DNA from: an uncultured Planctomycetales bacterium
GTDB lineage: Bacteria > Omnitrophota > Gorgyraeia > Zapsychrales > Fredricksoniimonadaceae
Assembly: GCA_964438075.1 (NCBI GenBank)
Contig: CAYTIW010000007.1
Coordinates: forward strand, 1-64,000
DNA length: 64,000 nucleotides
Direction: 5' to 3'
Shown here: piece by piece, positions 1-41,759 of the stretch
Layout: every line of letters begins with the position of its first letter
Numbering within the stretch: the first letter of the stretch is position 1
Position numbers and translations under genes: made by a program
The notes under the pieces: generated by a model
Databases searched by the model: none
The model's input: only the letters and a program-made list of their open reading frames with translations
Told to the model about the DNA's origin: nothing

Positions 1-3000
1 GTGAACTGGGAAGACGTGGAGGCGTTGACGAAGACGGGAGTGAATTGGACGGATATAGAGGTTATAAGCAAGACGGGTATTAACTGGACAGATCTGGAAA
101 ATATTTCCAAAACAGGAATAAATTGGGCTGATTTGAATGCTTTGACTTTGGCAGGGATAAACTGGACCGATATTGAAACAATCTCCAAGACTGGTATCAA
201 TTGGACGGACCTCGAGGTCATGACGGTCGAAGGAGTTAATTGGAGCGATATAAACAAATTAAGTGATACCGGCATAAATTGGGCTGATATCGATGTGCTG
301 AGCAGAACCGGCATTAATTGGTTGGATATTGAATCCATGAGTAATAGAGGAATTAACTGGTACGATCTAAGTGCTTTGTCTACAACAGGTATTAATTGGC
401 TGGATATTGAAGTCATATCTGATACTGGAATTAATTGGATGGATGTGGCGTCTCTATCGAGTTCCGGAATAAATTGGAATGACATGGAGATGTTTTCCAA
501 TGCCGGGATCAATTGGTCCGATCTAGAGTCAATGACCCGGACAGGTGTGAATTGGACCGATCTGCAAATTATGAGCAACTCCGGGATCAACTGGAACGAT
601 TTAGACATAATGAGTACGGTGAGTGTTAACTGGACGGACATAGCTACGTTGTCATCGAGTGGAGTGAATTGGACGGATATCGAAGCGCTTTCCACGACCG
701 GCATAAATTGGTCCGACTTGAACGCCATGACTTTGGCTGGAGTTAATTGGGCAGATATTGAGGCGTTATCCCACACAGGTATCAATTGGTTAGACCTGGG
801 AACGATGACCTTGTCAGGTGTAAACTGGGATGACATCAATTCTATGACGTTAGCCGGGGTTAATTGGAGCGACATTGAAACGATCTCCCAAGCGGGTATT
901 AACTGGACTGATATAGAAACCTGGACCAAAGCGGGCATAAATTGGACAGATTTTGAAACTATGACCGTGTCTGGAATTAATTGGGATGATCTGCAGGAAG
1001 CCACAAATTCGGCGGTAAATTGGACTGATATCCAGGCACTCTCCTTGGCTGGTATCAATTGGATAGATTTTGGTAGTCTGTCTAATGCGGCTATTAACTG
1101 GACGGATTTGGAGGCAATGACGAAAGAAGGTATTAATTGGACGGATGTGAGTGCTTTATCGAATATAGGTATGAACTGGTCTGATCTGCAATCGATGACC
1201 ATCTCCGCTATTAATTGGGCAGATATGGTGACTATGAGTAGTGCTGAAATCAATTGGGAAGACCTGGCGGTCATGAGTTCGACTGGATTGAATTGGGAAG
1301 ATATCGGCATTTTAAGCGCCGCCGGAGTTAATTGGTCGGATCTGGATATCATGAGCAGAAGCGAGATCAACTGGTCTGATCTATCGGTGCTGACTTCTTC
1401 GGCTATCAATTGGATGGACATGGAAGTTCTATCGAAGAGCGGCTTGAACTGGGCCGATCTGGAATCTATGACGGTTGCAGGTGTGAATTGGACGGATATT
1501 GAAGCATTGAGTAAGACTGGGGTTAATTGGATTGATATCGAACGGCTATCAAGCAGTGACATAAATTGGGAGGATATCGAACGCATATCAACTTCATCCA
1601 TAAACTGGACAGATATAGAACAATTATCTGTTTCGGGAATCAATTGGGCCGATATGGCCACCCTGAGCGCATCAGAGATCAACTGGGCAGATATAGCCGC
1701 CATGTCTTCGGAAGCTGTGAATTGGCTGGATTTGGAAGTATTGAGTAAGACGGGTGTAAATTGGGCCGACTGGGAGGCGATGACCGTTGCTGGTGTAAAT
1801 TGGACGGATATGGAAGCAATATCCAAAGCGGCGATCAACTGGACCGATCTGGAGACCATGACCGTCACTGGGGTAAATTGGATGGATCTGGAATCAATTT
1901 CCAAGACGGGTATCAACTGGTCAGATCTAAACGCCATGACCGTCGCTGGGGTGAATTGGACGGACATGGAAGTTTTAAGCAAGTCGGCGGTAAATTGGAT
2001 GGATATGCAGACACTTTCATCAGCAGCCATTAACTGGGTTGATATGAGTGCGATGTCGTTAGCGGGAGTCAATTGGACAGATTTGGAAATTCTGTCAGAA
2101 CAAGGTGTGAATTGGATCGACATTGAAACACTTAGTACGGCAGGTATAAATTGGGAAGATATACAGTCGCTTACAACTTCCTCTATTAACTGGGGGGATA
2201 TTGAAGTTATAAGCAAGACGGGAGTTAATTGGGAAGATATATCCGCCTTGAGTTCAACTGGAGTTAACTGGACCGATCTGCAGTCAATGACGATGGCAGG
2301 TGTAAATTGGACGGATTTGGAGACCATTTCCAAGACGGAAATAAACTGGATGGATTTGTCTGCCATGACCCTGTCCGGGGTCAATTGGAACGATATTTCC
2401 GCTATGAGTGCGAACGGAGTTAACTGGACCGACTTGCAGTCGATGAGCATGGCGGGGGTCAATTGGACAGATATGGAGTACCTTACCACTGCAGAGGTCA
2501 ATTGGTCGGATCTGGGAACTTTGAGCAACGCTGGTATTAATTGGTTGGATATAGATTCTTTAAGCAATACCGGCATTAACTGGTCAGATATCAATATCAT
2601 GTCTGATGCCGGAGTTAATTGGTCGGACATTGCTTACCTTACCTCATCGAATGTGAACTGGACCGACCTCGAATCCCTAACCAAAACCTCTGTAAATTGG
2701 GCTGACCTCGAGTCCATCACCAAGGCAGCTATCAACTGGACCGACCTGGAATCCATGACCAAGGCTTCCGTCAACTGGACCGACCTCGCAGCATTAACAG
2801 TCACGGGTGTTAATTGGGCGGACATAGAAGCCATTTCAAAATCCGCGATCAACTGGACCGATCTACAGTCAATGACGATGGCCGGTGTAAATTGGACCGA
2901 TCTCGGCGCTATGACATTGACGGGAATTAATTGGGACGATATGCAGGTTCTGCATGAAAATGGGGTTAACTGGGACGACTTGGCGTTCATGAGCCGCGCT

Positions 3001-6000
3001 GATGTTAACTGGACCGATCTGAGCGTTCTGACCGATGCCGGGGTCAACTGGACAGACATGGAGACCTTGTCCCACAGTAATCTTAATTGGTCAGATCTGG
3101 AAGTGATGACCAACGCCGCAGTTAATTGGGCCGACTGGTCCTCTATCAGCACCTCGGCTATAAATTGGGGTGATATGAACACACTGACCTCATCAGCTAT
3201 TAATTGGTCCTCTCTGGGAGATATGACCATCAGCGGAATTAACTGGTCTAGTTTCTCTGACATGACCGTGAGCGGGATAAACTGGACCGACATCGGAACC
3301 ATGACCGACTCGGGTGTGAATTGGGAAGACATCGGCATTATGAGCTCTGCCGGAGTGAACTGGACAGATATGGAGAAAATGTCCCTGACAGGGATCAACT
3401 GGAGCGATATCCAGTCCATGAGCGATACGGGTATCAATTGGACCGACCTCGGTGCCATGGCCGCGGCAGGTGTTAATTGGTACGATATGGAATATATGAG
3501 CGATGCCGGTATTAACTGGATGGACATTGAAACCTTGACGAATAGAGGGATCAATTGGGTTGATATCGAATCTTTATCACTAGCCGGTATCAACTGGTCG
3601 GATATTGGTACTATGAGCAGTTCTGGTGTCAACTGGACGGATCTGCAGACTTTAACTGAGACAGGTGTTAACTGGGATGACCTGCAGTCTCTGACTTTTG
3701 CGGGAGTGAATTGGAGCGATCTCGGCTCCTTAAGTACCTCTAGTGTAAATTGGGCTGACCTGGTTTCGATGACTCAAAATGGCGTTAACTGGACCGACTT
3801 GTCGGTGATGTCTGATGCCGGAGTCAATTGGTCCGATTTCTCTGTCTGGACGGCTGCCGGGGTCAACTGGGATGATTTCGCCGTATTGACAGATTCAGGC
3901 ATCAATTGGAACGATTTGGAAATGATGAGCGAATCATCATTGAACTGGGCCGATCTGGCGTCTATGACCCTCAATGGTGTGAATTGGGCTGATCTCTCCA
4001 CATTGAGCGAAGCGGGCGTTAATTGGACCGACCTGTCTGTAATGAACTCTATGGGTGTAAATTGGGCTGACCTGAATGCTATGACAACTGCGTCGGTAAA
4101 TTGGGAAAGTTTGGAAGTGTTGACCAAGACCGATATCAATTGGGATGACCTGCAGACTATGACTGTTTCAGGAGTTAATTGGATGGACCTTGCGACAATG
4201 TCCGATGCCGGTGTGAACTGGATCGATATAGAGTCCATGAGTAAGGCTGATGTTAATTGGACCGGCATCGAATATCTATCCCAGGCAGGCGTGAATTGGG
4301 ATGATCTCTCAGTATTGAGTGACTCAAGTGTGAACTGGATGGATATGGAATACATGAGTAAAGCTGCGGTTAACTGGACCGACCTCATGCAGATGAGCGT
4401 TTCCGGAGTCAATTGGCTGGACCTGGGCGATATGACAGGGGCAGGGGTTAACTGGAGTGATATCAACGCCATGACTTCGGCCGGTGTGAATTGGACTGAA
4501 CTCCAATCCATGTCCGAGACCGGTGTGAATTGGGATGACCTGTCGGCCCTGACTTCGGCAGGTGTTAATTGGGTTGATCTGGAGGCGATGACAGTGTCCG
4601 GGGTGAACTGGACCGACCTCATGCAGATGAGCGTTTCCGGAGTCAATTGGCTGGATCTGGGCGATATGACAGGGGCGGATGTTAACTGGAGCGATATCAG
4701 TACTCTCTCTGCCGCCGGTATTAATTGGGACGACATCACTACCCTCAGTACGGTCGGGGTCAACTGGGCGGACCTTTCGACCATGTCTTCGGCGGGAGTG
4801 AACTGGTATGATGTTGGTTCTTTGTCTTTAGCTGGTGTCAATTGGGAATATTTCGAAGAGTTCTCTACGGCAGGTGTCAATTGGGATGACTTGTCCATAT
4901 TGAGTTCTGCAGGGGTCAACTGGACCGACCTCAATTCGATGACTTCGGCTTCGGTGAATTGGGAAGGTTTGGAGATATTGACCAAGACCGATATCAATTG
5001 GGATAATTTCGGGGCGATGACAACTGCCGGTACGAATTGGGATGCGTTCTCGTTCATGACCACGGCCGGCGTCAACTGGGATGAATTAGCTTCAATAACA
5101 TATACCGGTGTCAACTGGGATGACCTGCAATCGTTGACCGATGCTGGAATTAATTGGAATGACCTGCAGTATATGACCTCTACAGCTGTCAATTGGACCG
5201 GTCTGGAGGCGATTTCAAACACTACTGTGAACTGGGAAGATCTCGCCTCTATGACCTCGGCGGGAGTGAATTGGAATAGTCTGGAATTTATGTCCAGCGC
5301 CGGGATCAACTGGTCCGATTTCGAGTCCTTGACCAATAAGGGTATAAATTGGGATGACATCAGCAAAATGGCCAGTTCGACTATCAATTGGTCAGATTTC
5401 GAGAACCTGACCGAAGCCGGAATAAATTGGGATGGATTAAGTGTCATGTCAGAAACGGCTATCAATTGGGATGACCTTATGGCTTTGAGTGTATCGGGCA
5501 TCAATTGGCTCGATTTTGCATATTTGTCTCAAGCCGGGGTCAATTGGGAAGATATCGAGAGCATGACAGTAGCTGGTGCTAACTGGGAAGACCTGACGAT
5601 GATGGGCAGTGCGGGCATCAATTGGGATGCCCTGTCCTATATGTCCGCCGCCAATGTGAACTGGGATAGTTTGCAATCATTGTCCGTGGCTCAGATGAAC
5701 TGGCAGGGACTGAGTGACATCTCTCTCGCTGGTGTAAATTGGGAGAACATCGGCGATATGTCCAGAGATGGGGTCAATTGGCTTGACGTAGGGGCATTAT
5801 CCGAAGCGGGTATCAACTGGTCGGATTTCACTCAACTGACGAACACCGGTATCAACTGGGAAGATGTAAGGACTTTGAGCGAAACCGGTATTAATTGGAA
5901 CAGCATCGGCGAAATGGCAGAGGCGGGTATCAATTGGCAGGGCATCTACACCTTGAGCTATGCGGACATTAACTGGGAGGGGATCGGTGATATGTCCACC

Positions 6001-6390
6001 AGTGGTATTAATTGGCTGGATATCGGCCTGCTTTCCCAGGCCGGGGTCAACTGGGCTGAGATCGCAACGATGTCGTATGCGGACTTGAATTGGGATGAGA
6101 TAGCGGTAATGACGGATAGCGGGATCAACTGGTATAGCATAGGCGATATGACAGCTTCGCAGATCAACTGGAACGACGTGGCGGTTATTTTTGAATCCAG
6201 TATCAATTGGGATGATCTGAGTGTGATGTCTACCCGAGAGGTGAACTGGGCTGACGTCACTGTTATGACCACTTCCGATGTTAACTGGGGTGACGTGGGT
6301 GGTTTCTCCACGACCGGTGTCAATTGGGCAGATATGGCCAGGATGACCCATTCTAATATAGACTGGAGAGAAATGAGTTATTTCTCTGCC
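1..6390 (+). repeat. In-frame 39-bp (13-codon) tandem repeat array with diverged copies
   Basis: AAYTGG (Asn-Trp) recurs every 39 nt from base 4 to about 6365. Copies differ at many synonymous and non-synonymous positions. A local 26-aa super-period alternates ..[IL]SK[TS]G.. with ..MT[VLM][AS]G.. units. Confidence 0.9.
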
Positions 6391-7083
6391 AATGCCAGGA
6401 CCTTGGTTTCGAATATCCAGGATATATTCGATAATATCGGAAGCGATCCCACAACGACTGACCAAACGACCTTGTTCGGCAAGATCAACCGGATGATCAC
6501 CGCTATCAACGATGTTGATATCAATACGATCGTCAGCATATTGGGAACAGCTGCGGATACCAAAGCTTCCAATACTATCTTTGGAGATCTTAATGCGGTC
6601 CAAGCGGCTATAGGTGATCCCAGCACCAGCAGCACTGTTTTCGAGCAAATGGATGTCATTCAGGACTTTGCCAAGAAAGGCAAGGACAGCGCCGATGCCG
6701 CTTTAGGGGTCACCAAGAATATAGAAAGCGATCTGGGGGTTTTTGGCCAGACCCCGACGACATATGAGAAACTCAGGCAGCTGGAGGATTATATCAAGAA
6801 TATTCAGCAGGCTGCGCTGGAATTGGGACCAAAACAGGAAGCCACGAGCGCGGTTGCCGATCAACTGGTAGAAATGGTACGTCAGATAATCAATGAACAG
6901 GCAAAGCAGGTCGGCTTGGAGACGACCGGGATGATGATAGAGAAACTCTCCAAACAGCAGTCCGAAGATGTCGAAAAGATCAACGAGAAGCTGGAAGAGA
7001 TCGATGCCAAGATCAGGGCTTTGCAGGAAGCTATGAAAGCCGATGACGTCGTTATCAAGACCTGGTTTGAAAGTGAGGAGTAA
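1..7083 (+). CDS. Giant tandem-repeat protein with its N-terminus cut by the window edge (2360 aa visible). About 160 consecutive 13-aa units G-[VI]-N-W-x-D-[LIM]-x-x-[LM]-[ST]-x-x, then a ~250-aa non-repeat helical C-terminal domain. Function unknown.
   Basis: One open frame runs from base 1 to TAA at 7081-7083, and it is already open at base 1, so the true start lies upstream. The translation is almost pure 13-aa periodicity (TGVNWTDIEVISK, TGINWTDLENISK ...) with invariant N-W and a D two residues after W. The last recognisable unit is near aa 2110 (SNIDWREMSYFSA). It is followed by a D/E/K/Q-rich tail ending IKTWFESEE. I recognise no family. Confidence 0.85.
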   Translation: MNWEDVEALTKTGVNWTDIEVISKTGINWTDLENISKTGINWADLNALTLAGINWTDIETISKTGINWTDLEVMTVEGVNWSDINKLSDTGINWADIDVLSRTGINWLDIESMSNRGINWYDLSALSTTGINWLDIEVISDTGINWMDVASLSSSGINWNDMEMFSNAGINWSDLESMTRTGVNWTDLQIMSNSGINWNDLDIMSTVSVNWTDIATLSSSGVNWTDIEALSTTGINWSDLNAMTLAGVNWADIEALSHTGINWLDLGTMTLSGVNWDDINSMTLAGVNWSDIETISQAGINWTDIETWTKAGINWTDFETMTVSGINWDDLQEATNSAVNWTDIQALSLAGINWIDFGSLSNAAINWTDLEAMTKEGINWTDVSALSNIGMNWSDLQSMTISAINWADMVTMSSAEINWEDLAVMSSTGLNWEDIGILSAAGVNWSDLDIMSRSEINWSDLSVLTSSAINWMDMEVLSKSGLNWADLESMTVAGVNWTDIEALSKTGVNWIDIERLSSSDINWEDIERISTSSINWTDIEQLSVSGINWADMATLSASEINWADIAAMSSEAVNWLDLEVLSKTGVNWADWEAMTVAGVNWTDMEAISKAAINWTDLETMTVTGVNWMDLESISKTGINWSDLNAMTVAGVNWTDMEVLSKSAVNWMDMQTLSSAAINWVDMSAMSLAGVNWTDLEILSEQGVNWIDIETLSTAGINWEDIQSLTTSSINWGDIEVISKTGVNWEDISALSSTGVNWTDLQSMTMAGVNWTDLETISKTEINWMDLSAMTLSGVNWNDISAMSANGVNWTDLQSMSMAGVNWTDMEYLTTAEVNWSDLGTLSNAGINWLDIDSLSNTGINWSDINIMSDAGVNWSDIAYLTSSNVNWTDLESLTKTSVNWADLESITKAAINWTDLESMTKASVNWTDLAALTVTGVNWADIEAISKSAINWTDLQSMTMAGVNWTDLGAMTLTGINWDDMQVLHENGVNWDDLAFMSRADVNWTDLSVLTDAGVNWTDMETLSHSNLNWSDLEVMTNAAVNWADWSSISTSAINWGDMNTLTSSAINWSSLGDMTISGINWSSFSDMTVSGINWTDIGTMTDSGVNWEDIGIMSSAGVNWTDMEKMSLTGINWSDIQSMSDTGINWTDLGAMAAAGVNWYDMEYMSDAGINWMDIETLTNRGINWVDIESLSLAGINWSDIGTMSSSGVNWTDLQTLTETGVNWDDLQSLTFAGVNWSDLGSLSTSSVNWADLVSMTQNGVNWTDLSVMSDAGVNWSDFSVWTAAGVNWDDFAVLTDSGINWNDLEMMSESSLNWADLASMTLNGVNWADLSTLSEAGVNWTDLSVMNSMGVNWADLNAMTTASVNWESLEVLTKTDINWDDLQTMTVSGVNWMDLATMSDAGVNWIDIESMSKADVNWTGIEYLSQAGVNWDDLSVLSDSSVNWMDMEYMSKAAVNWTDLMQMSVSGVNWLDLGDMTGAGVNWSDINAMTSAGVNWTELQSMSETGVNWDDLSALTSAGVNWVDLEAMTVSGVNWTDLMQMSVSGVNWLDLGDMTGADVNWSDISTLSAAGINWDDITTLSTVGVNWADLSTMSSAGVNWYDVGSLSLAGVNWEYFEEFSTAGVNWDDLSILSSAGVNWTDLNSMTSASVNWEGLEILTKTDINWDNFGAMTTAGTNWDAFSFMTTAGVNWDELASITYTGVNWDDLQSLTDAGINWNDLQYMTSTAVNWTGLEAISNTTVNWEDLASMTSAGVNWNSLEFMSSAGINWSDFESLTNKGINWDDISKMASSTINWSDFENLTEAGINWDGLSVMSETAINWDDLMALSVSGINWLDFAYLSQAGVNWEDIESMTVAGANWEDLTMMGSAGINWDALSYMSAANVNWDSLQSLSVAQMNWQGLSDISLAGVNWENIGDMSRDGVNWLDVGALSEAGINWSDFTQLTNTGINWEDVRTLSETGINWNSIGEMAEAGINWQGIYTLSYADINWEGIGDMSTSGINWLDIGLLSQAGVNWAEIATMSYADLNWDEIAVMTDSGINWYSIGDMTASQINWNDVAVIFESSINWDDLSVMSTREVNWADVTVMTTSDVNWGDVGGFSTTGVNWADMARMTHSNIDWREMSYFSANARTLVSNIQDIFDNIGSDPTTTDQTTLFGKINRMITAINDVDINTIVSILGTAADTKASNTIFGDLNAVQAAIGDPSTSSTVFEQMDVIQDFAKKGKDSADAALGVTKNIESDLGVFGQTPTTYEKLRQLEDYIKNIQQAALELGPKQEATSAVADQLVEMVRQIINEQAKQVGLETTGMMIEKLSKQQSEDVEKINEKLEEIDAKIRALQEAMKADDVVIKTWFESEE

Positions 7084-8448: not shown

Positions 8449-9915
8449 ATGAGCATAAAAGTACAGTATACGGAAGTCGGATACGTGAAAGCCATCCGCG
8501 GTTGTATCGTTATCGTGACCGGTTTTGGCAATTGCATTAACGGCCAGTTGATCCGGTTCGGATACGGCACTATCGGGATGGTTGTCGGGTTCACGGAGAC
8601 AGAGGCCCAGGTGCTGATCCTGAAAGAGACAGAAAAGATACGTACCGGCCAGGAGGCGCAAGCTTCGGTTGAACCTCTGGTCACACCCGTTGGAAAGAAT
8701 TTTATCGGCCGTATAGTTAATCCGCTAGCCGAGCCGTTGGATGGGCTGGGGCCGATCGTGCCGGATGATATTGCACCGATCTTTCCGGAATCGCCTCCCA
8801 TCCTGGACCGGCAGCCTTTGAACAAGACCTTGGAAACCGGGATCAAAGTCCTCGATGCCATGATCCCTATCGGGCGCGGTCAGCGGGAATTGATCCTCGG
8901 CGATAAAATGACCGGGAAGACCACCTTTGTTACGGATACGATCGTCAACCAGAAAGATGCCGGGGTAATATGTATTTATTGCGGTATCGGCAAGGCGCGT
9001 TCCAGCCTGGCAAAAGTGGTGCAGCTTTTCAAGGACCGCGGATGTTTCGATTACAGCATAATAGTTTCCGCCTCGGCATCCTCACCGCCTGGCCAGCAGT
9101 ATCTGGCCCCGTACGTGGCCTGTTCATTGGGGGAGTATTTCATGCGTCGCGGACAGGATGTTTTTATCGGATTCGACGATTTCACTAAGCATGCCTGGTC
9201 TTACCGGGAGATATCCTTACTATTGGGACGGCCGCCGGGGCGTGATTCTTATCCGGGAGACATATTTTATCTTCACTCCAAAATGATCGAACGCGCCTGT
9301 TTCCTTTCCAAGGAGAAAGGCGGAGGGTCCATGACTTTCTTCCCGATCGTTGAGATACTCGAAGGGGATCTTACCGCCTTCGTGCCCTCGAACCTGGTCT
9401 CCATGACAGACGGTCAGATATACCTCAGCGCCCAGCTTTTCGGTGAAGGGCAGAAACCGGCCCTGGATCTAGGCTTGTCCGTTTCCCGGGTTGGATCCAA
9501 GGTCCAATGGCCGGCTATCAAGGCGTTGTCCGGGCCTCTGCGTTTGGAGTACCTGCAGTACCGCGAATTGCTGCGGATTTCCAAGTTAAAGACCTCCGGT
9601 CAGTCTGAGGACATGAAGCAGAAATTGAAACGCGGTTCGATACTGACCGCCATCCTCCGGCAGTACAAGGATTCGCCGGTGTGCCAGGAAATGCAGGTGT
9701 TGATATTCTACGCCTTTAACAAGAAGTATCTGAACGATTTCACAATCGAGCAGGTCGACGCTTTTCAGAATAGCTGTCTGGAGTATACCAAGAACGTGAA
9801 GCCGGAATTTTTGACGCTATTGAGAGAGCGCCGCAAGTTGGACCCCGAGATCGAGAAATTGATGGATGAAGTTATAAATGGCCTGTCAGCGCAAGTAACT
9901 GGGAAGGGGCATTAA
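8449..9915 (+). CDS. atpA: F1-ATPase alpha-subunit homolog (divergent)
   Basis: Walker A GDKMTGKTT; LLGRPPGRDSYPGDIFYLHSKMIERA (canonical [24 protein letters not shown]); GGGSMTFFPIVE; SVSRVGSKVQ. The resemblance to alpha runs the full length. Confidence 0.85.
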   Translation: MSIKVQYTEVGYVKAIRGCIVIVTGFGNCINGQLIRFGYGTIGMVVGFTETEAQVLILKETEKIRTGQEAQASVEPLVTPVGKNFIGRIVNPLAEPLDGLGPIVPDDIAPIFPESPPILDRQPLNKTLETGIKVLDAMIPIGRGQRELILGDKMTGKTTFVTDTIVNQKDAGVICIYCGIGKARSSLAKVVQLFKDRGCFDYSIIVSASASSPPGQQYLAPYVACSLGEYFMRRGQDVFIGFDDFTKHAWSYREISLLLGRPPGRDSYPGDIFYLHSKMIERACFLSKEKGGGSMTFFPIVEILEGDLTAFVPSNLVSMTDGQIYLSAQLFGEGQKPALDLGLSVSRVGSKVQWPAIKALSGPLRLEYLQYRELLRISKLKTSGQSEDMKQKLKRGSILTAILRQYKDSPVCQEMQVLIFYAFNKKYLNDFTIEQVDAFQNSCLEYTKNVKPEFLTLLRERRKLDPEIEKLMDEVINGLSAQVTGKGH

Positions 9916-9978
9916 ATTTAGTTCTTATGCGGATGTGTTTTATCTGAGGCTGCTAGAGGTGAGGGAGAAAAGCGTTCT

Positions 9979-10248
9979 ATGCCACCATTATATAAGGGGA
10001 ATTTCCGTTGCGTGATCTTGAGCGCCAAGCGTTTGGTATTTGAGGCTGAGATAAACAGCCTTTTTATTACCGGTGATAGGGGAGAGTATGAGCTTTTGGC
10101 ATATCATTATCCTCTTATCGGTATCGTTAAAGGCGATATTGTGATCAATTGGGAAAAACGTTTGCCGGTAAGGGGCGGGGTGGTGCGGTTCTTCGCTAAT
10201 GAATGCAATGTCATGATCGAAGAAGCCCCAGCTCAGAAAACCAACTGA
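9979..10248 (+). CDS. atpC: F1 epsilon-subunit-like protein with the beta-sandwich domain only
   Basis: 89 aa. GEYELLAYHYPLIGIVKGDIVI ... VRGGVVRFFANECNVMIEEA matches the epsilon N-terminal domain pattern (EG.GIL.GH.P....L..G.+.+ ... VSGGF.EV..N.VTILA). The C-terminal two-helix hairpin is absent. Confidence 0.6.
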   Translation: MPPLYKGNFRCVILSAKRLVFEAEINSLFITGDRGEYELLAYHYPLIGIVKGDIVINWEKRLPVRGGVVRFFANECNVMIEEAPAQKTN

Positions 10249-10263
10249 GATTAGAGGGAGGCC

Positions 10264-10482
10264 ATGTTAGCTGAAACATTCATTATTATTACGGTAATGT
10301 TCATAGCTGTTATGGGGCCGAACGTCGTCATCGGTATGCTGGGCTATGCCGTGATCAAAGCGCTAAGTAGAAATCCCTCTGCCGCTTCCAAGATCTTCGG
10401 AGCGATGGTCATCATGTTGATATTCGTGGAGGCGATATCGATCGTGGCCATGATGGTGATTTTCCAACTTTTTGCGAGGTAA
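10264..10482 (+). CDS. atpE: Fo c-subunit (proteolipid) homolog
   Basis: 72-aa two-helix hairpin with polar loop SRNP (canonical R-[QN]-P) and a helix-2 carboxylate in LIFVEAISIV. Helix 1 lacks the usual GxGxGxG packing motif. Confidence 0.7.
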   Translation: MLAETFIIITVMFIAVMGPNVVIGMLGYAVIKALSRNPSAASKIFGAMVIMLIFVEAISIVAMMVIFQLFAR

Positions 10483-10485
10483 TCG

Positions 10486-10716
10486 ATGCAATTTCAGTAT
10501 TGGCCCGAAGGATTGATATTTATAGCCCTGTTCACGTTTATTATCGGGTTCCCCTGTGTCATGGTGGCTATATTGGGAACAAAACTTATTAATTATATAG
10601 GTCAGTATCCGTCCAAGTGTGCCAGGCGTCAGATGATAGCGTGTTTGCAGCTTTTTGTGATTGAGCTGATCTCGTTCGCGATCTTGGCGCTTTTTTATCA
10701 TATCTTTTCCGATTAA
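10486..10716 (+). CDS. Second, divergent c-subunit-like two-helix hairpin protein
   Basis: 76 aa, starting 3 nt after the c-subunit stop. Two hydrophobic helices, loop GQYPSK, and a helix-2 Glu in LFVIELISFA at a position analogous to the c-subunit ion-binding carboxylate. Confidence 0.45.
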   Translation: MQFQYWPEGLIFIALFTFIIGFPCVMVAILGTKLINYIGQYPSKCARRQMIACLQLFVIELISFAILALFYHIFSD

Positions 10717-10730
10717 CAAAGGAGCCGGTC

Positions 10731-11486
10731 ATGACGTTCGAATTGATCGTTGGATTCTTCATACTAAATGCCCTTGTTACAGGGGCTATTATTCTGGCCC
10801 TGCACTGGGTCTTTGTTTCCAGTGTCGACGGAGCCAAACAAAGGCTGGAACGCGATGCCGAGTCTGCCCGGGCCCGCGAGGCGGAACTTAACCGCAAGAT
10901 CAGGCAGGCTGATGAAGAGCTAACGGCCCGGAAGAAAGAACTCGACCTTGTCGAACAGCGGATGAAAGGCCAGCTTGAGCAAGAGACCGAAAAACACCGG
11001 GAAGACCTGGTAAACAAGGCCCGTAGCGAGGCTGAAGAGATCATCGCCAAAGCACAGATAGCGGCTGAAGGTTTGCGCAAGGAGGCTGAGAAACAGATGG
11101 AGATAAAGATCATCGATTATTCGACCAGGATACTTAACGAGATCTTTTCTAGAAAGGCCAAAGCGGCTTTTGAAAAAGATCTGGTCGAAGAGTTCGTTTC
11201 CCAACTTAAAGAGATCGATATGTCCAAGATCAGCCTCGAGATCAAGAAGGCCGAAGTGGTTACCGCCTGCGGGATATCCGATGAGGACCTGAAACGTATT
11301 GCGGATATGGTCAGGGTAAAGACCGGCCGCGACATAGCTTTGGAGACCAAGGTGTCGGATGAGTTTGTGGCCGGGGTGGTGGTCAAGTTCGGCAGCCTGC
11401 ATTTGGACGGAAGCGTGCGGAACGCCATTCGGGAATCGGCGTTAGCCCTAAAAGGCGAAGTTGATAAGGGGAATTTACGAAAGTAA
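10731..11486 (+). CDS. atpF: Peripheral-stalk b-delta fusion-like protein
   Basis: An N-terminal TM (IVGFFILNALVTGAIILALHWVF) is followed by a long E/K/R/A-rich coiled coil typical of subunit b. The C-terminus DEFVAGVVVKFGSLHLDGSVRNAIRE resembles the delta/OSCP C-terminal signature (GG..+++GD...DGSVR..L). Confidence 0.6.
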   Translation: MTFELIVGFFILNALVTGAIILALHWVFVSSVDGAKQRLERDAESARAREAELNRKIRQADEELTARKKELDLVEQRMKGQLEQETEKHREDLVNKARSEAEEIIAKAQIAAEGLRKEAEKQMEIKIIDYSTRILNEIFSRKAKAAFEKDLVEEFVSQLKEIDMSKISLEIKKAEVVTACGISDEDLKRIADMVRVKTGRDIALETKVSDEFVAGVVVKFGSLHLDGSVRNAIRESALALKGEVDKGNLRK

Positions 11487-11498
11487 AAAGAGCTCGTA

Positions 11499-13791
<2,293 letters not shown>

Positions 13792-13793
13792 AG

Positions 13794-15539
13794 ATGTTGA
13801 AGTCAGCGGTAAATAAAGCAGTATGCGAAGCGCTTCTCAAAAGTACTCTTTTGGACGAGCCTAACCTCCAGAAATATGCCGCTGAGGCCCATCGGCTGAA
13901 CCAGAAGATATCCTTTTACCTCGTCCAGCAAGGCATTTTGAAGACCCCCGCCGTTCTCCGGGCCTTGGCAGAACATTTCCACTTGGATATCGTCAATCTG
14001 AAGACGGTCAATGTCGACCGTATGGCCATCGACCGGGTCCCGGTCAAGTTCGCTTCCTATTACCGATTCATGCCCTTGGCCGTGGACGGGAACCGTTTGA
14101 CAGCTGCTGTTTCGGAACCGCTGGATATACATAATCAGGACGACATACGCGCGCATTTAGGCCTGGAACCGCGTTTTGTCCTGGCCTCGCCGTGGGATAT
14201 CGATGAAGCTCTGAAGCGTTATTACGGCCTGGCTTCCGAGACCATTGACCAGATATTGACCAAGGACCCGCAGAAACGGTCGGCCTTTTCCGAAGACCGT
14301 TCTTCCAAGATAGAGGATATCGAGAAGCAGAGCGAAGACCCGTCGGTCACTAAACTGGTCAATCAGATCATTTTGGAGGCCTACCAGAAGCGGGCTACGG
14401 ATATCCACATCGAACCCTACCGTAACCGGGTCCGTTTCCGCTATCGTATCGACGGGGTTCTGCTCGATGCCAATCTCCCTCCGGAAGCAAAGCATTTTCT
14501 CCTGGCCATAATATCGCGTATAAAGATCATGGCCAACCTGACCATCACCGAGAAGCGGCTTCCCCAGGACGGGAGCGCGGTGGTACGCGTGAAGGAACAG
14601 GCCCTGGACCTGCGCGTTTCAACCATCCCCACCCAGCACGGGGAGAGCATGGTCATACGACTTTTGCCGACCACTACCACGCTGCTGGACCTGGAGAAGC
14701 TAGGGTTTAATGCCGATAATGCCAGCAAGTTCAGGGAACTGATACGCCATCCGCATGGCGTTATTTTTGTTACGGGGCCTACCGGTAGCGGAAAGACCAC
14801 CACCTTGTACGCCTGCCTGAACGAGATCAACGACCCGACCCGCAAGATCATCACTATCGAGGACCCGATAGAGTATGAGATGGAGGGGATCACTCAGATA
14901 CAGATCAACTCCGGCATCGATTTCGGTTTCGCGACCGGCTTGCGCAGCATCCTGCGGCACGATCCGGACATCCTCATGGTGGGAGAAGTGCGGGACCGGG
15001 AGACGGCCGACATCGCTATTCGTACTGCCCTGACCGGCCATTTGGTGTTCTCCTCGCTGCACACTAATGATGCCGCAACCGGGGTGACACGCTTGGTTGA
15101 TATGGGGGTGGAACCTTATCTGGTGGCCTCGAGCGTGCAAGCTTTCATTGCCCAGCGTTTGGTGAGGGTCATATGCCCGCAGTGCAAAGAGGAGGACCGC
15201 GAGCCGCTGATGGAGATAAGGAAGGAGATAGCCAGGAGTTTAGGTTTCTCCTCGCTGGATGAAATAAAATTCTTCAAGGGCCGGGGCTGTGACCAATGCA
15301 ACAATACGGGTTATTATGGCCGTACGGCTATTTATGAAATATTGGAGATAACCGAAGCCATCCGCTCCGCGATCCTGGACAAGCCGAGGGCGGAAGAGAT
15401 AAAACGCATAGCCGTACACGGAGGGATGCGCACGCTGCGGCAGGACGGCTGGAAGAACGTTATAGCCGGTGTTACCACTCCGGCCGAGGTCTTGAACGTA
15501 ACGCTTAAGGAGACGGCTGGGGCATCCTCCGCGGTCTAG
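13794..15539 (+). CDS. gspE: Type II secretion / type IV pilus assembly ATPase (GspE/PilB family)
   Basis: The ATG lies 2 nt after the atpD stop. N-terminal T2SSE_N-like domain, Walker A GPTGSGKTT, Walker B/Asp box DILMVGEVRD, and a tetracysteine CPQC...CDQC. Confidence 0.9.
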   Translation: MLKSAVNKAVCEALLKSTLLDEPNLQKYAAEAHRLNQKISFYLVQQGILKTPAVLRALAEHFHLDIVNLKTVNVDRMAIDRVPVKFASYYRFMPLAVDGNRLTAAVSEPLDIHNQDDIRAHLGLEPRFVLASPWDIDEALKRYYGLASETIDQILTKDPQKRSAFSEDRSSKIEDIEKQSEDPSVTKLVNQIILEAYQKRATDIHIEPYRNRVRFRYRIDGVLLDANLPPEAKHFLLAIISRIKIMANLTITEKRLPQDGSAVVRVKEQALDLRVSTIPTQHGESMVIRLLPTTTTLLDLEKLGFNADNASKFRELIRHPHGVIFVTGPTGSGKTTTLYACLNEINDPTRKIITIEDPIEYEMEGITQIQINSGIDFGFATGLRSILRHDPDILMVGEVRDRETADIAIRTALTGHLVFSSLHTNDAATGVTRLVDMGVEPYLVASSVQAFIAQRLVRVICPQCKEEDREPLMEIRKEIARSLGFSSLDEIKFFKGRGCDQCNNTGYYGRTAIYEILEITEAIRSAILDKPRAEEIKRIAVHGGMRTLRQDGWKNVIAGVTTPAEVLNVTLKETAGASSAV

Positions 15540-15634
15540 TGCCTTTTTGCCCATTTTTACTTCAGCCCCCTGTCCTGGTGTTTTGCATCGTTGGGATCGT
15601 TCGATGACTCTAAATAATGAAAGGGGCCGGTCCC

Positions 15635-16846
15635 ATGCCGGTTTTTGCCTATAAAGCCAAAAAAGACAATGCTGAGACGGTCCTGGGCGATATCGTGGCC
15701 CGGGATGCCAACGAGGCTATCGAGATGGTCAGCCGTCGCGGTCTCTTGCCGGTCGCCGTTGAAGAGAAGGAAGGAGAGGGTGCGGCATCTGTATTGGGAT
15801 TGTCTGCCGGAAATGTCCGTCGAAAAGACATCATGGTGTTCACGGGGCAGTTGGTGAGCTTGCTGAAGGCCGGGGTCCCTCTTCTGCAATCGATAGAACT
15901 GTTGTCAAGGAAGACACGCAACGCCAAACTAGCCTATGTTCTGTCCGATATCGCGCTGAACATACGCAACGGCAAAACTTTCTCCGCAGGACTGGAGGAT
16001 CATCCGGATATCTTTGAGCCCCTGTATACGGCTATGGCCCGGGCGGGTGAGGAAGGCGGGAGCATTCGGGAAATGCTGGCTGAGATGGCTGATTATTATC
16101 GCAAGCAGGAAGATATCGCCCTAAAGGTCCGCGGCGCGCTGACTTACCCGGCGGTCATGTTGGTAGCCGGTATCGGCACGGTCATTTTTGTGCTTACTTT
16201 CGTGCTGCCTAAGATCAAGGTGCTTTTCAAGGATATGCATACGGCGCTCCCCTTGCCAACGGTGATAGTACTCAAGTTGAGCGAGATGGTGCAGAATGGG
16301 TGGCCCGTGATCCTGGCTATTGCGGTCCTGGGCGCTTTATCATGGCAATCCCTCCGTCGCATGGCAGCTTTCCGGAGGGCCGTTGGCCAGGTCATTTTTG
16401 CCTTGCCATGGGTAAGGGAGTTTGCCTTGAAAATAGAGATGCAGAGGTTCACCAGGACCATGAGCTTCCTGCTGGAAGGCGGCATCCCTATATTGCGGGC
16501 TTTGGAGCTGGCCATCCCGACACTGTCAAATGAAACTTTGAAGGATGACCTGGGCAAGTGCAAAGATATGATAGCGGACGGCGCCACCTTTGGGGACACG
16601 CTAAGACGTTCCGTTCTCATACCTGATATAGTGCCGTCATTGGTAGCGGTAGGGGAAGAGGCCGGCGCGCTCGCACAATCACTCAGGGATATAGCGGAGA
16701 CTTACGAGCAGGAGATCGGCGAAAGCACCAAGGCCATGTCGACCCTGCTGGAACCGCTCCTGATTCTCCTGGTGGGATCGGTGATAGCCTTCATTGTTTT
16801 TGCTATGTTGATGCCTATATTTCAGATGGATATTTTCGCCCAATGA
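15635..16846 (+). CDS. gspF: Type II secretion / T4P platform protein (GspF/PilC family)
   Basis: I chose the MPVFAYKAKK start (ATG 15635, AAAGGGG about 9 nt upstream) over the ORF-track start at 15617. It has the typical GspF layout with two repeated cytoplasmic domains and three TM segments, and ends LLMPIFQMD. Confidence 0.88.
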   Translation: MPVFAYKAKKDNAETVLGDIVARDANEAIEMVSRRGLLPVAVEEKEGEGAASVLGLSAGNVRRKDIMVFTGQLVSLLKAGVPLLQSIELLSRKTRNAKLAYVLSDIALNIRNGKTFSAGLEDHPDIFEPLYTAMARAGEEGGSIREMLAEMADYYRKQEDIALKVRGALTYPAVMLVAGIGTVIFVLTFVLPKIKVLFKDMHTALPLPTVIVLKLSEMVQNGWPVILAIAVLGALSWQSLRRMAAFRRAVGQVIFALPWVREFALKIEMQRFTRTMSFLLEGGIPILRALELAIPTLSNETLKDDLGKCKDMIADGATFGDTLRRSVLIPDIVPSLVAVGEEAGALAQSLRDIAETYEQEIGESTKAMSTLLEPLLILLVGSVIAFIVFAMLMPIFQMDIFAQ

Positions 16847-17685
16847 CCCTGACATGGAAGTTCATAGCGCCGGTGGCCGTGTTATGGTTAGTTATGGTTA
16901 TGGGCCCCGCGCGGGCCGTTGAAGAGCCATTTCGTGAACTTAAGGGCGATCATTTTATTGTCAAATATTTGCTTGAGGATGAACGCAGCCGGGCTGTCCA
17001 GATATTAACCCGCGCGGAGTTATATTATAAGAGGGTGGCTGAAAGTATCGGTTATAACCGTTACCAGGAATACTGGACTTGGGAACGGCGCGTGACCGTA
17101 GTTCTTTATCCTGACCAACTGTCCTACGCCAAGTTCACCGGACAGCCACAGTGGTCCAAGGGGTATGCCAGCCGGGATTCCAAACTGTTCAGGACCAAGG
17201 TGATCGTTTCCTATGATGGCCAGCCTGAATTCCTGGAGGAGATATTGCCGCATGAGATCGCACATTTGATCCTGTGGGATTTTCTCGGATTTACCCGTAA
17301 GGTGCCGATATGGTTCGAGGAGGGCTTGGCCCAGCGGGAGGAGGATGGCAAGAGAGCCGTTGTGCAGCAGGCCATGAAGGAAGTTGTCATTTCCGGGAAC
17401 GATATCCCTTTTGCCACCTTCCATGGACTGGATGTGGGCAGGATCACGGACCCGGTGCAGGTTTCATTGTTCTATGCCCAAAGTCTCTCGGTGGTGGAGT
17501 TCATGATCGGTAAATACGGCCGTGATGCTTTCAGGAACTTTTGTCGTGAGATACGGGAAGGCCGGGCGTTCGAGGAGGCTTTGCCCCGCGCCTACCCGGC
17601 CATCTTTCGGACGGTGGATGATCTGGGATCGAAATGGAAGAATTATATGCAGAATGAAGTTGTTTCTTCAGGAGGCGGGCTATGA
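16843..17685 (+). CDS. Secreted HExxH zinc metallopeptidase-like protein (Peptidase_MA_2-like)
   Basis: ATGA-type 4-nt overlaps with both gspF (upstream) and gspG (downstream). Signal peptide VAVLWLVMVMGPARA, HEIAHL, then WFEEGLAQ as the third-ligand Glu context. Confidence 0.6.
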   Translation: MTLTWKFIAPVAVLWLVMVMGPARAVEEPFRELKGDHFIVKYLLEDERSRAVQILTRAELYYKRVAESIGYNRYQEYWTWERRVTVVLYPDQLSYAKFTGQPQWSKGYASRDSKLFRTKVIVSYDGQPEFLEEILPHEIAHLILWDFLGFTRKVPIWFEEGLAQREEDGKRAVVQQAMKEVVISGNDIPFATFHGLDVGRITDPVQVSLFYAQSLSVVEFMIGKYGRDAFRNFCREIREGRAFEEALPRAYPAIFRTVDDLGSKWKNYMQNEVVSSGGGL

Positions 17686-18089
17686 ATAACAGCAGAGGGT
17701 TCACGCTGGCAGAGATAATGCTGGTGGTCATCATAATAGGGGCCTTGGCGGCCATGGTCGTCCCCCGCTTGTCCGGCCGGTCCGAACAGGCCCGTATCGC
17801 CGTAGCCAAGGCGGATATAAAGACCAACATCCCTACCGCTTTAAAAATGTACGAGTTGGACAACGGAATGTATCCAACTACAGAGCAGGGTCTCCAGGCT
17901 CTCCGGGAAAAACCATCGTCCGCCCCGGCCCCCAGGTATTGGCACGGGCCTTATTTGGAACAGGATCCGGTGGACCCTTGGGGTAATCCTTACTTTTACG
18001 AATCACCGGGGACCCATCGCTCAGATTACGACTTATATTCCAAAGGCAAGGACCAGAATTCTCCCGATGGTTACATCACCAACTGGTAA
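17682..18089 (+). CDS. gspG: Major type II secretion pseudopilin GspG
   Basis: Prepilin leader MNNSRG|FTLAEIMLVVIIIGALAAMVVP with Glu+5. The GspG signature is LDNGMYPTTEQGLQAL...GPYL...DPWGNPYFYESPG...YDLYSKGKD. Confidence 0.9.
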   Translation: MNNSRGFTLAEIMLVVIIIGALAAMVVPRLSGRSEQARIAVAKADIKTNIPTALKMYELDNGMYPTTEQGLQALREKPSSAPAPRYWHGPYLEQDPVDPWGNPYFYESPGTHRSDYDLYSKGKDQNSPDGYITNW

Positions 18090-18528
18090 CAGGACCGCCC
18101 ACCGCCGAAGCTTTTTCCCGGACTCAAGGGTGGGGCTGACTTTCGTCGAGGTCATGGTCACCTCGGTAATACTATCGGCGGGGCTGGTGGCGATTTACCG
18201 GTCTTTCTTCATCGCAGCTGACGTCGTGCAGCATCTTTCCAACCGGCTTTACGCCCTGAATCTGCTGGAAAACAAGATCACAACGATAGAAAGGGATTTC
18301 CGGTCGCGGAAAGATTTCGATATCGGCCCCTTGACTGAAGACGCCGTGGTGAATAATCATCCCGTGGTTTTTCAGTATCGAGTGGAACTAAAGCCGGTGG
18401 GCAGTCTTCTGACAGTGTTCCAGCTCGACATTTCCTTGTCCTGGGAGGAAAGGGGAAGGTTTCGGAGCGTTTCCCGTTCGGCCTATTTTTCCGGTGTGAC
18501 CCCCTTGGAAAAGGGGGATGCCTCATGA
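18067..18528 (+). CDS. Minor pseudopilin (GspH/GspI-like)
   Basis: A basic leader is followed by G|LTFVEVMVTSVILSAGLVAI (Glu+5 present). The start is uncertain, with a 23-nt overlap with gspG. An in-frame GTG at 18130 would leave almost no leader. Confidence 0.55.
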   Translation: MVTSPTGNRTAHRRSFFPDSRVGLTFVEVMVTSVILSAGLVAIYRSFFIAADVVQHLSNRLYALNLLENKITTIERDFRSRKDFDIGPLTEDAVVNNHPVVFQYRVELKPVGSLLTVFQLDISLSWEERGRFRSVSRSAYFSGVTPLEKGDAS

Positions 18529-19148
18529 GCTTTCGACACGAAAGGGGCCTTATGAAATCCTGCCGTAACTCCGGCTTTACTCTGGCCGAGGTCCTTTTGG
18601 TAACGGTCCTTTTCGCTTCCATAGGGCTGGTAGTTTTCAACTGCCTGAACAATGGCCTCAAACTATGGATGAGGAGCCAGAGCCTGGTTGACGAGCAGGA
18701 TGCGATCGTTTTCTTTGACCGTATAGCCGGGCATTTGCGCAACGCCTTCCTTTATTCAGAGATCCAATTTGCCGGAGAGCCTGAACGGCTGGCATTCCCG
18801 ACGGTTGTTTATACCCCAGCGGACCGGGCAAGTTCGCGTGCCTGGGAAGGATACGTGGAACAGATAGGGATGGTCCGGTATTCCTTTGATGTCGCCCGAG
18901 GCAATGTCTTGCGTGAAGAGGCTGATTATTCTCTCGCCACCCGGGGCAGCTTCGGCCCGGCGAGAGTGGAAGTAAAAGGGGTCAAAGACCTCCGTTTCAG
19001 GTATTACTACTCCGGACACACAGAACCTTCCTTGACCGCTCACGATCAAAAGGCGCTGCCGGCCGGGGTGGAGGTGGAGATACGTTTGGCGGGAGACGGC
19101 GCTGAGAAGGTGTTGAAACGCTATGTGCCTATCCCGGCGGGGAGTTGA
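18525..19148 (+). CDS. Minor pseudopilin (GspJ-like)
   Basis: 4-nt overlap with the upstream gene. Leader ...CRNSG|FTLAEVLLVTVLFASIGLVVF. The ~200-aa size fits GspJ/PulJ-type minor pseudopilins. Confidence 0.6.
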   Translation: MSFRHERGLMKSCRNSGFTLAEVLLVTVLFASIGLVVFNCLNNGLKLWMRSQSLVDEQDAIVFFDRIAGHLRNAFLYSEIQFAGEPERLAFPTVVYTPADRASSRAWEGYVEQIGMVRYSFDVARGNVLREEADYSLATRGSFGPARVEVKGVKDLRFRYYYSGHTEPSLTAHDQKALPAGVEVEIRLAGDGAEKVLKRYVPIPAGS

Positions 19149-19149
19149 T

Positions 19150-20178: not shown

Positions 20179-20244
20179 ATCAGTTTTGGGTTGATTGACG
20201 GAAAAAGCTTAGTCTATAATGTAGCCATCAAATGCGGAGAAAAC

Positions 20245-21744: not shown

Positions 21745-21755
21745 GGAGTCCCGCC

Positions 21756-22391: not shown

Positions 22392-22425
22392 TCTTTTAGC
22401 CGCCGGCGTTTCGCCTGTCCCCATT

Positions 22426-41662: not shown

Positions 41663-41759
41663 GATTGCATGTTTCTGCCTTTGGGCCTGCCAATAACCTG
41701 TCGGAGCGATCTTTGTCCGGCCTTTACCTCACGGGTCATTAAGAAATACAACACCGTCG

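Follow-up and report, generated by a model that had tools for sequence, protein, structure and literature searches.

The NW repeat gene and its locus

We analyzed a stretch of 64,000 nucleotides (the window) at the start of contig CAYTIW010000007.1 (assembly GCA_964438075.1), which belongs to an uncultured bacterium assigned to the Omnitrophota. The window opens within a gene that encodes a long array of 13-residue units, each built on an Asn-Trp dipeptide (NW repeats). This gene is followed by an F-type ATPase-like gene set, by genes related to type II secretion systems (T2SS) and type IV pili (T4P), and by genes of glycosylation type, including one for a protein of the STT3 family of oligosaccharyltransferases (OSTs). 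The original prediction, which was made from the letters of the sequence, held that about half of the repeats carry an N-W-[ST] glycosylation sequon and that the repeat protein may be a densely glycosylated surface fibre. The observation as a whole was confirmed: the NW array, the tally of Ser and Thr, and the three glycosylation-type genes are real.

A single stop-free frame on the plus strand spans positions 1-7083 and encodes 2360 visible amino acids (aa), which form the C-terminal part of an open reading frame (ORF) cut by the 5' edge of the window. This fragment contains 163 NW dipeptides, and all 162 spacings between them are exactly 13 aa, with no insertion or deletion. The consensus of the unit is [VI]-N-W-x-D-[LI]-x-x-[ML]-[ST]-x-[AST]-G, in which Asn and Trp are invariant (163/163). 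Counting from the Asn, position +7 is occupied by Met or Leu in 140 of the 163 units and by Ile in 17, and position +8 by Ser or Thr in 156, while the residue at -2 is Gly in 113 units, Ala in 16, Asp or Glu in 15 and Ser in 11. Pro and Cys are both absent from the repeat region, which is extremely acidic (296 Asp and Glu versus 38 Lys and Arg in 2120 aa). The DNA copies of the unit are diverged, and Tandem Repeats Finder reports only a few local duplications with periods of 39, 78, 117 or 234 nt. Because the 13-residue register is unbroken in spite of this divergence, it is maintained at the protein level.

Within the array, at positions 4328-4793, we also observed recent internal duplications of two, three and six units (periods of 78, 117 and 234 nt, 62-79% matches). 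The block VNWTDLMQMSVSGVNWLDLGDMTGA, which occurs twice, is an example of these duplications. They show that the array is still expanding by multi-unit slippage or recombination.

Table 1. Coordinates of the repeat gene and of the genes that follow it (nucleotide positions in the window)
Feature	Position	Strand	Remarks
NW repeat array	1..6357	+	163 tandem 39-nt (13-aa) units, 64 with N-W-[ST]
Degenerate unit (IDW), then non-repeat C-terminal tail of ~230-240 aa ending in ...VIKTWFESEE	6358..7083	+	
Conserved partner protein, 448 aa, N-terminal hydrophobic segment and C-terminal transmembrane (TM) segment	7087..8433	+	directly after the repeat gene in related loci
F-type ATPase-like gene set	8449..13791	+	abuts GspE at 13794
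ATPase alpha	8449-9915	+	
ATPase epsilon-like	9979-10248	+	
ATPase c-like	10264-10482	+	
Small 2-TM ORF in the ATPase set	10486-10716	+	
ATPase b/delta-like (fusion)	10731-11486	+	
ATPase gamma	11499-12356	+	
ATPase beta	12367-13791	+	
T2SS/T4P-like operon	13794..23232	+	
GspE	13794-15539	+	
GspF	15617-16846	+	
Peptidase MA	16843-17685	+	
GspG-like (major) pseudopilin	17682-18089	+	
Minor pseudopilins	18067-19148	+	
GspK-like	19123-20178	+	
PilM-PilN fusion	20191-21744	+	
PilO/GspM-like	21756-22391	+	
TPR protein	22303-23232	+	
PMT_2-type GT-C glycosyltransferase	23288..24949	+	PF13231, 34.5 bits, cut-off 26.1
GT2 glycosyltransferase	24961..25767	+	PF00535, E 6e-29
tRNA-Ala (CGC)	25895..25971	-	between two convergent transcription units
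STT3-family GT-C enzyme	26087..28618	-	PF02516, residues 116-455, E 9.9e-21
Trypsin/HtrA-like serine protease without PDZ	28637..29380	-	immediately upstream of the STT3-like gene, co-directional

The 448-aa partner had no family match at the curated cut-off. No a subunit of the ATPase was seen in the window or in L001, a related locus, though the c, epsilon and b/delta subunits are present; L001 has the same ATPase gene order as the window, with matches to the Pfam domains ATP-synt_DE_N and ATP-synt_C. The glycosylation-type genes had been placed just downstream of the repeat cluster. All three exist, as judged by Pfam, but 16-21 kb separates them from the end of the repeat gene, a span that includes the ATPase set and the T2SS/T4P-like operon. 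The STT3-like gene is located on the opposite strand, in a convergent unit that consists of the trypsin-like protease gene, the STT3-like gene and the tRNA-Ala gene.

Upstream of the repeat gene, two related loci (L001, 1573-9991, and L002, 3316-9830) encode a GT2-DUF2304-GT2 group, a small hypothetical protein, a secretin and a TPR protein, and L001 has two FGE-sulfatase-family genes in addition; the corresponding region of our contig lies beyond the 5' edge of the window. On the minus strand of the window (38694-43205) there is a second PMT_2-type GT-C gene (41760-43205), whose neighbors are an ORF of 493 aa that matches nothing in Pfam (40181-41662) and a gene for a B12-binding radical SAM enzyme (38694-40184). 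Between positions 52000 and 56000 the G+C content is 0.395, versus about 0.50-0.55 elsewhere, and Pfam gave no match for two ORFs there (52581-53432 and 54708-55490); the segment may be of foreign origin or evolving fast.

Homologs of the repeat protein and conservation of the locus

Homologs of the repeat protein come almost exclusively from metagenome-assembled genomes of Candidatus Omnitrophota. In a HMMER scan of 1.84 billion cluster representatives the family comprised 433 sequences at E <= 1e-3 and 134 at E <= 1e-10. Full-length homologs (P0003, P0006, P0007 and P0069) begin with an N-terminal signal or anchor sequence, followed by a non-repeat N-terminal region, about 10 to more than 160 NW units, and a C-terminal tail that is conserved in the family (VVKAWYESE or VVMKTWFEAE in homologs). 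The proposal of a surface fibre is consistent with such an exported family; the dense N-glycosylation that was part of the same proposal lacks backing from the site statistics and from the enzyme pocket, which are described below.

In two long members of the family, P0069 (2809 aa) and P0070 (2304 aa), the NW arrays are broken into blocks by inserts of 270-911 aa. These two proteins have a common N-terminal domain of about 370 aa and, unlike the window protein with its flawless register, show occasional spacings of 15 residues. Several database matches to the repeat region were rejected. The Pfam matches to Lysostaphin_N, Ntox33 and 2-Hacid_dh are artefacts of periodicity, with no significant individual stretch, the NCBIfam matches to Dmc1, TrpC and ThiE are spurious, and the sole match to a PDB sequence at E < 0.01 was to the myc-tag repeats of a flagellin construct. 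No known Ca2+-binding or carbohydrate-binding repeat was matched in Pfam, NCBIfam or PDB sequences, and literature searches for an Omnitrophota OST or for an NW repeat found nothing.

We examined the conservation of the locus by scanning 185,579 species-representative genomes with GspF as an anchor and flanks of 10 kb, followed by tblastn with the window proteins. The gene order of the window, with the ATPase set placed before the T2SS/T4P-like genes, recurs in over 30 loci. All 20 loci whose upstream side could be judged contain the repeat gene (tblastn with a query from the C-terminal part of the repeat protein), the STT3-like gene flanks the cluster in 24 of the 32 loci whose downstream side could be judged, and both genes are found in 12 of the 18 loci with both sides visible. 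When viewed from the STT3 side, five of six homolog contexts adjoin the same pilus-assembly genes, including those of homologs with 33-40% identity. Co-occurrence of the two genes across genomes, which the original prediction had suggested as a check, is thus largely borne out.

In the window and in L003, L004, L005, L086 and L088 the protease gene always lies immediately upstream of the STT3-like gene and in the same direction, with gaps of roughly 10-140 nt between the two. The pair is encoded in many GspF-anchored loci as well, and it flanks the locus in a conserved manner. By contrast, the PMT_2/GT2 pair, found in only four related loci, is a variable insert and not a conserved flank. In three loci (L008, L032 and L047) the STT3-like gene is clearly not adjacent, and the neighbors are unrelated genes. 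In several other loci scored as lacking it, additional glycosyltransferase genes follow the TPR gene as an insert, and these may have pushed the STT3-like gene beyond the 10-kb flank; one of the loci, L030, shares its epimerase-GT2-GT-C order with the region that precedes STT3 in L088.

A homolog from the same STT3 clade (47% identity) is found away from the pilus/ATPase locus, in L087 (10001-21075), where it lies beside LpxK, Kdo-transferase-like, lipid A acyltransferase and GT4/GT9 genes. In L003 and L088, too, LpxB is found within a few kb of the STT3-like gene. These lipopolysaccharide (LPS) gene neighbors hint at a possible link to envelope glycolipids.

The N+2 position and the glycosylation-type enzymes

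The motif N-W-[ST] is present in 64 of the 163 units (39%; 41 with Thr and 23 with Ser), and the whole ORF fragment has 67 N-x-S/T sequons. The earlier tally of 41 units with Ser or Thr at N+2 among the first 80 is exact. As a pattern, the relaxed acceptor motif (x being any residue except Pro, and Trp in the units) occurs in these 64 units, and the extended PglB sequon D/E-x-N-x-S/T fits five units only, in agreement with the original prediction that the array would not conform to it.

We compared the N+2 position with the rest of the array. Ser and Thr are more frequent at N+2 (39%) than in the repeat region overall (21%, binomial p 2e-7), but this advantage is not clear when the reference is the other variable positions, which have 32% when pooled (Fisher p 0.095, binomial p 0.065) and individually reach 37% at +6 and 48% at +10. 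The frequency of Ser and Thr at N+2 declines along the array (52% over the first 100 units versus 19% over the final 63), and these residues are nearly gone from the last 40; Asp and Glu take over the position toward the C-terminal units (D/E 13 to 25). One of the residues S, T, D, N, E and Q is found at N+2 in 112 of the 163 units, or in 131 when Ala is added. The same comparison was made with 524 non-redundant units from 38 homologs, where the N+2 residues are S (88), D (80), T (71), N (53), A (50), Q (30) and E (30), and where Ser and Thr together account for 30% at N+2, 27% at +9 and 31% at +10. Among long family members the share of Ser and Thr at N+2 ranges from 18% (P0070) to 59% (P0069), and the Asn is constant whether or not one of them follows. 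The enrichment of Ser and Thr after the Trp, proposed earlier as a check on the sequon, therefore did not emerge as a clear excess over other variable positions, either in the window array or in the homolog units, which is essentially the outcome that the original prediction had named as refuting it. Judged by position statistics and homolog conservation, N-W-[ST] does not look like a sequon maintained by selection. Caution is needed here, as counts of N-x-S/T in a low-complexity repeat rich in Ser and Thr are no evidence for N-glycosylation.

The product of the STT3-like gene matches PF02516 with 75 bits (cut-off 24.5). We built a profile from this protein and 18 relatives and aligned it to human STT3A. 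In the profile, D123 is invariant and D243-x-D245 is at least 90% conserved; the segment ESDSYYF aligns to EFDPYF, which carries the Asp of external loop 1 (EL1), and WYDNDpY aligns to SYDNEG, which corresponds to the DxD motif. The segment V375-G-E-L378 is also invariant and was assigned to the TIXE/SVSE Glu by eye only. Judged from its sequence, the STT3-like protein is probably an active GT-C enzyme.

The region expected to read WWDYG is different in this enzyme, where it reads WWSPGHF. All 41 members of the Omnitrophota clade (33-97% identity) have WW[S/P/A/T]PGHF, whereas four outgroup proteins keep WWD[FY]G. Additionally, in comparison with Campylobacter jejuni PglB the Tyr-Tyr pair is replaced by AV and DGGK by DGAS, while LMDKTMFNS corresponds to LMDRVLANS (a weak alignment, E 0.01). 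The side chains of WWD hydrogen-bond the +2 Ser/Thr of the acceptor, and the motif has been called strictly conserved in STT3 proteins (PMC10859629, PMC8342417). Since its Asp is absent from every clade member, N-x-S/T is no safe predictor of the sites of this enzyme.

The gene at 23288 had been labeled GT39/PMT-like, and this label did not hold. At E <= 0.01 its product matches only the generic PMT_2 family, with no match to PMT (PF02366), MIR or PMT_4TMC (PF16192), and its best NCBIfam match, Agl23, is far below the cut-off. It is best called an ArnT/PMT_2-type GT-C. The GT2 protein resembles polyprenol-phosphate sugar synthases, though none of its NCBIfam matches (PgfS, the best, with E 2e-18; AglJ; ArnC; PpgS; Dol-P-hexose transferase) comes near the cut-off of its model. 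The [LM]-[ST] position of every unit had also been proposed as an O-mannosylation site for the PMT-like enzyme. Ser or Thr at +8 is conserved at 82-96% in all family members, but the PMT_2/GT2 pair is confined to the four loci mentioned above; therefore O-mannosylation by the PMT_2 enzyme cannot explain the conservation of the motif, and we rejected this explanation.

Interpretation of the NW unit

From the observed repeat anatomy, position statistics, synteny and motif changes we infer helix capping by the unit, a fibre role for the protein, and glycosylation, if any, of components of the locus. The interpretation that we favor, with moderate confidence, is that the NW unit is a capped-helix structural repeat of an exported acidic rod, that N-W-[ST] is a by-product of this structure, and that the glycosylation genes are accessory to the locus. 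Most likely each unit would form one short amphipathic helix, from the Trp at +1 to about +9. [VI] at N' and [LI] at N4 could form a hydrophobic staple, Asn as the N-cap and Asp at N3 a capping box, and Gly at C', [ML] at C3 and [VI] at C'' a Schellman-type C-cap. The consensus conforms, as a pattern only, to that of a capped helix, which opens with h-[STDN]-x-x-[DE]-h and closes with a Gly at C' together with hydrophobic residues at C3 and C''. Capping boxes, hydrophobic staples and Schellman motifs are the classical helix caps that this pattern matches; they were reportedly described by Harper and Rose in 1993, Munoz and Serrano in 1995, and Aurora and Rose in 1998. The N+2 residue would be N2 of the first helical turn and would lie on the variable face, where small polar or acidic side chains would be tolerated (any of S, T, D, N, E, Q and A), so that N-W-[ST] would arise as a by-product in roughly 30-40% of the units. 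Small polar and acidic side chains are favored at N2, in agreement with the 112 units that have S, T, D, N, E or Q at N+2 and the 131 reached with Ala.

Repeated at least 163 times, the unit would make a long, very acidic rod free of Pro and Cys. The rod protein is exported and is a fixed component of the Omnitrophota locus that encodes an F1-like ATPase and T2SS/T4P-like proteins, presumably serving as a surface or periplasmic fibre or adhesin of the ATPase/T4P-like machine. The STT3-like/protease pair, together with the GT2/GT-C pair where present, may be accessory glycosylation genes, with the repeat protein as one candidate acceptor.

The arrangement of residues is consistent with a helix. 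When the unit is drawn as a helical wheel (100 degrees per residue), a single arc of 120 degrees takes in the conserved positions +1, +4, +7 and +8, and the variable positions +2, +5, +6 and +9 are on the opposite side. We ran AlphaFold2 on 16 units with a 10-row multiple sequence alignment and on 10 units with a 32-row alignment that included homolog segments, and DSSP assigned a 9-residue helix from the Trp to +9 in every unit of both models. A beta-solenoid with an Asn ladder and an EF-hand- or RTX-like Ca2+ loop were also considered and seem less likely; the residue pattern does not fit them, and the predicted secondary structure is helical.

Several points weigh against the favored interpretation. 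The confidence of the two AlphaFold2 runs is low (pLDDT of 43 and 47), the tertiary models are unreliable, and the helix-capping proposal therefore draws only on the logic of the sequence and on predicted secondary structure. In the periodicity analysis, entropy shows another peak near 160 degrees, and the hydrophobic moment is maximal at 120-130 degrees rather than at 100. At N+2 of the window protein, Thr taken alone shows a 2.2-fold enrichment (p 4e-4) while Ser is depleted, and OSTs generally favor Thr over Ser. In C-terminal units Ser and Thr occupy N+2 in 32% of cases where the STT3-like gene is adjacent and in 16% where it is not, a difference with a nominal p of 0.048 that includes only two loci without the gene and is not corrected for phylogeny. 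A structural role of the Asn would also be compatible with its modification, because the amide nitrogen of an N-cap Asn is free and glycosylation could precede folding. Finally, the conserved adjacency of the STT3-like gene and the presence of glycosyltransferase genes on both flanks (upstream in L001 and L002) suggest that something in the machine is glycosylated, and the repeat protein is by far its largest exported product. We consider it probable that some component of the locus is glycosylated.

The targets of the glycosylation-type enzymes can be envisioned differently. There is a minor but real chance that the repeat protein is not a target and that the STT3-like enzyme, like the GT2/GT-C pair, modifies something else in the locus or the envelope. 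Pseudopilins or pilins, the 448-aa partner, the secretin, general periplasmic proteins, and a lipid or LPS acceptor could serve as such substrates, each of them being a candidate only. The neighbor of the STT3-like gene is the pilus-assembly end of the cluster (TPR-PilO-PilMN-GspK) and not the repeat gene, and there is a precedent in archaeal AglB, which modifies pilins, archaellins and S-layer proteins (PMC5131992). Several N-x-S/T motifs were read by eye in the 448-aa partner, whereas the mature part of the major pseudopilin, also read by eye, has no usable sequon. The homolog encoded beside LpxK, Kdo-transferase and GT9 genes and the nearby LpxB genes in two other loci would fit a lipid acceptor, and the second PMT_2 gene of the window shows that GT-C enzymes are common in this genome. 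On the other hand, the locus contains both the repeat gene and the STT3-like gene almost without exception. Overall, pilins, the 448-aa partner and envelope lipids are at least as likely to be acceptors as the repeat protein.

We regard it as unlikely that the STT3-like enzyme N-glycosylates N-W-[ST] with a relaxed specificity resembling that of archaea and eukaryotes, which would yield the densely glycosylated fibre of the original prediction. This proposal is supported in part, by the export of the family, by the presence of the genes and by their co-occurrence: there are 64 sequons with Trp and not Pro in the middle, the STT3-like gene is conserved beside the locus, the catalytic D, DxD and E motifs are kept, and some bacterial PglBs modify a minimal N-X-T without an acidic residue at -2 (PMC4894442). 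The Thr enrichment and the weak trend toward more Ser and Thr next to an STT3-like gene point in the same direction. It found no support in the enrichment of Ser and Thr or in the WWD pocket of the enzyme, and its O-mannosylation part was rejected. Ser and Thr at N+2 are not clearly more frequent than at other variable positions, with Asp and Asn as common across the family; their share varies widely between members and they nearly vanish from the end of the array. The WWD Asp is missing from the entire clade, and the Tyr-Tyr and DGGK positions differ too. Moreover, the STT3-like gene lies about 19 kb away on the opposite strand, is not adjacent in the three loci named above, and in one homolog adjoins LPS-core genes instead.

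It is quite improbable that the invariant Asn, Trp and Asp bind a ligand or a metal and that the fibre is a multivalent glycan- or Ca2+-binding adhesin for host or prey surfaces, in which case Ser or Thr at N+2 would not matter. Asn, Asp and Trp are typical carbohydrate-binding residues. The extreme acidity of the array would suit such an adhesin as well, but no known repeat of either binding type was matched, and the Trp shares the conserved hydrophobic face with L+4 and M+7, as would be expected of a core residue. The proposal agrees with the lifestyle of Omnitrophota, which have been inferred to be epibionts or predators and whose locus has been proposed to act in attachment or motility (PMC10066038).

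The least probable explanation, to which we give very little weight, is that the altered-pocket STT3 clade modifies the invariant Asn, or conceivably the adjacent invariant Trp, of every N-W-x-D unit regardless of Ser or Thr. OST-like enzymes that act on Trp do exist (the DPY19 C-mannosyltransferases), and if this explanation were true, more than 160 regularly spaced glycans would decorate a fibre of the F1-like-ATPase/T4P-like machine, N-W-x-D would be a glycosylation sequon new to bacteria, and the OST and its substrate would form a dedicated pair.

Comparison with known systems

Short-period rods such as the 12-residue beta-helix of TmAFP, the 16-residue repeats of ice-nucleation proteins and the 13-residue lysostaphin pro-region resemble the NW array in their short fixed period and high copy number. 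The NW unit differs in being predicted helical rather than beta, and has no sequence relationship to them.

Glycosylated repeat adhesins offer another comparison. They include the substrate of the Streptococcus mutans Pgf system, in which the GT2 enzyme PgfS and the GT-C enzyme PgfM act on Cnm, the serine-rich repeat adhesins, and Haemophilus HMW1, which has many N-x-S/T sites and is modified by the cytoplasmic HMW1C. What these systems have in common with the window is a large repetitive surface adhesin encoded near dedicated glycosyltransferases; the best NCBIfam match of the window GT2 is PgfS, as given above, and related Omnitrophota loci encode epimerase-GT2-GT-C trios. In contrast to these systems, the enzymes of the window belong to other families (STT3-like and PMT_2), its candidate sites show no enrichment, and any modification of the repeat protein is hypothetical.

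With PglB (of Campylobacter, and the relaxed PglBs of Desulfovibrio) and AglB the window enzyme shares the Pfam STT3 N-terminal domain, the EL1 Asp and DxD, and its C-terminal domain aligns, weakly, to that of C. jejuni PglB over the WWDYG and LMDxxxxNS regions. It differs from them in the WW[S/P/A/T]PGHF sequence found in place of WWD(Y/F)G and in the pairing of its gene with a trypsin-like protease gene. No acceptor, glycan or pgl-type pathway for a lipid-linked oligosaccharide was identified for the window enzyme. The clade is specific to the phylum, departs from a WWD rule regarded as strict, and usually flanks the locus. If the STT3-like enzyme is active, acceptor rules for oligosaccharyltransferases would be wider, which is of interest for glyco-engineering, and its activity would hint that glycosylation is part of the biogenesis of the machine.

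Seymour et al. (2023; PMC10066038) described the Omnitrophota "symbiotic" type-2/3 F-type ATPase / type-4a pilus locus and likened it to the gliding motor of Mycoplasma mobile. The M. mobile system (MMOB1660/1670; Gli349/Gli521) and the window have in common an F1-like ATPase encoded beside a very large surface protein, and the alpha and beta proteins of the window match the NCBIfam models of MMOB1660/1670 with E-values of 1e-117 and 1e-124, below the cut-offs of the models. Differences include the epsilon, c and b/delta-like subunits of the window, its T2SS/T4P-like partner and a diderm-type cell. The Gli proteins have no similarity to the repeat protein, and the analogy is a functional speculation.

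T2SS-like loci near giant Omnitrophota genes were reported by West-Roberts et al. (2023; bioRxiv 10.1101/2023.11.21.568195). The giant proteins (Archaeovorins and dockerin-type proteins) differ from the NW repeat protein in domain content, and the repeats named in the passages retrieved from that preprint are HEAT, dockerin/thrombospondin, TPR and similar, with none of 13 residues. A search of the Seymour and West-Roberts papers for the terms STT3, oligosaccharyl and glycosylation returned no mention.

Omnitrophota are uncultured, ultra-small bacteria, and among their candidate machines for host interaction the one encoded by the F1-like ATPase/T4P-like locus is the most distinctive. The window, in which the F-type alpha, gamma and beta genes lie directly upstream of GspE, GspF and the pseudopilins, contains a non-respiratory F-type ATPase within 10 kb of T4P/T2SS-like genes in a genome of this phylum, as in the locus of Seymour et al. 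Attached to this published type of locus are two components that did not surface in the term searches of these papers: an unannotated family of 13-residue NW repeat proteins, putative fibres, and an atypical STT3 clade.

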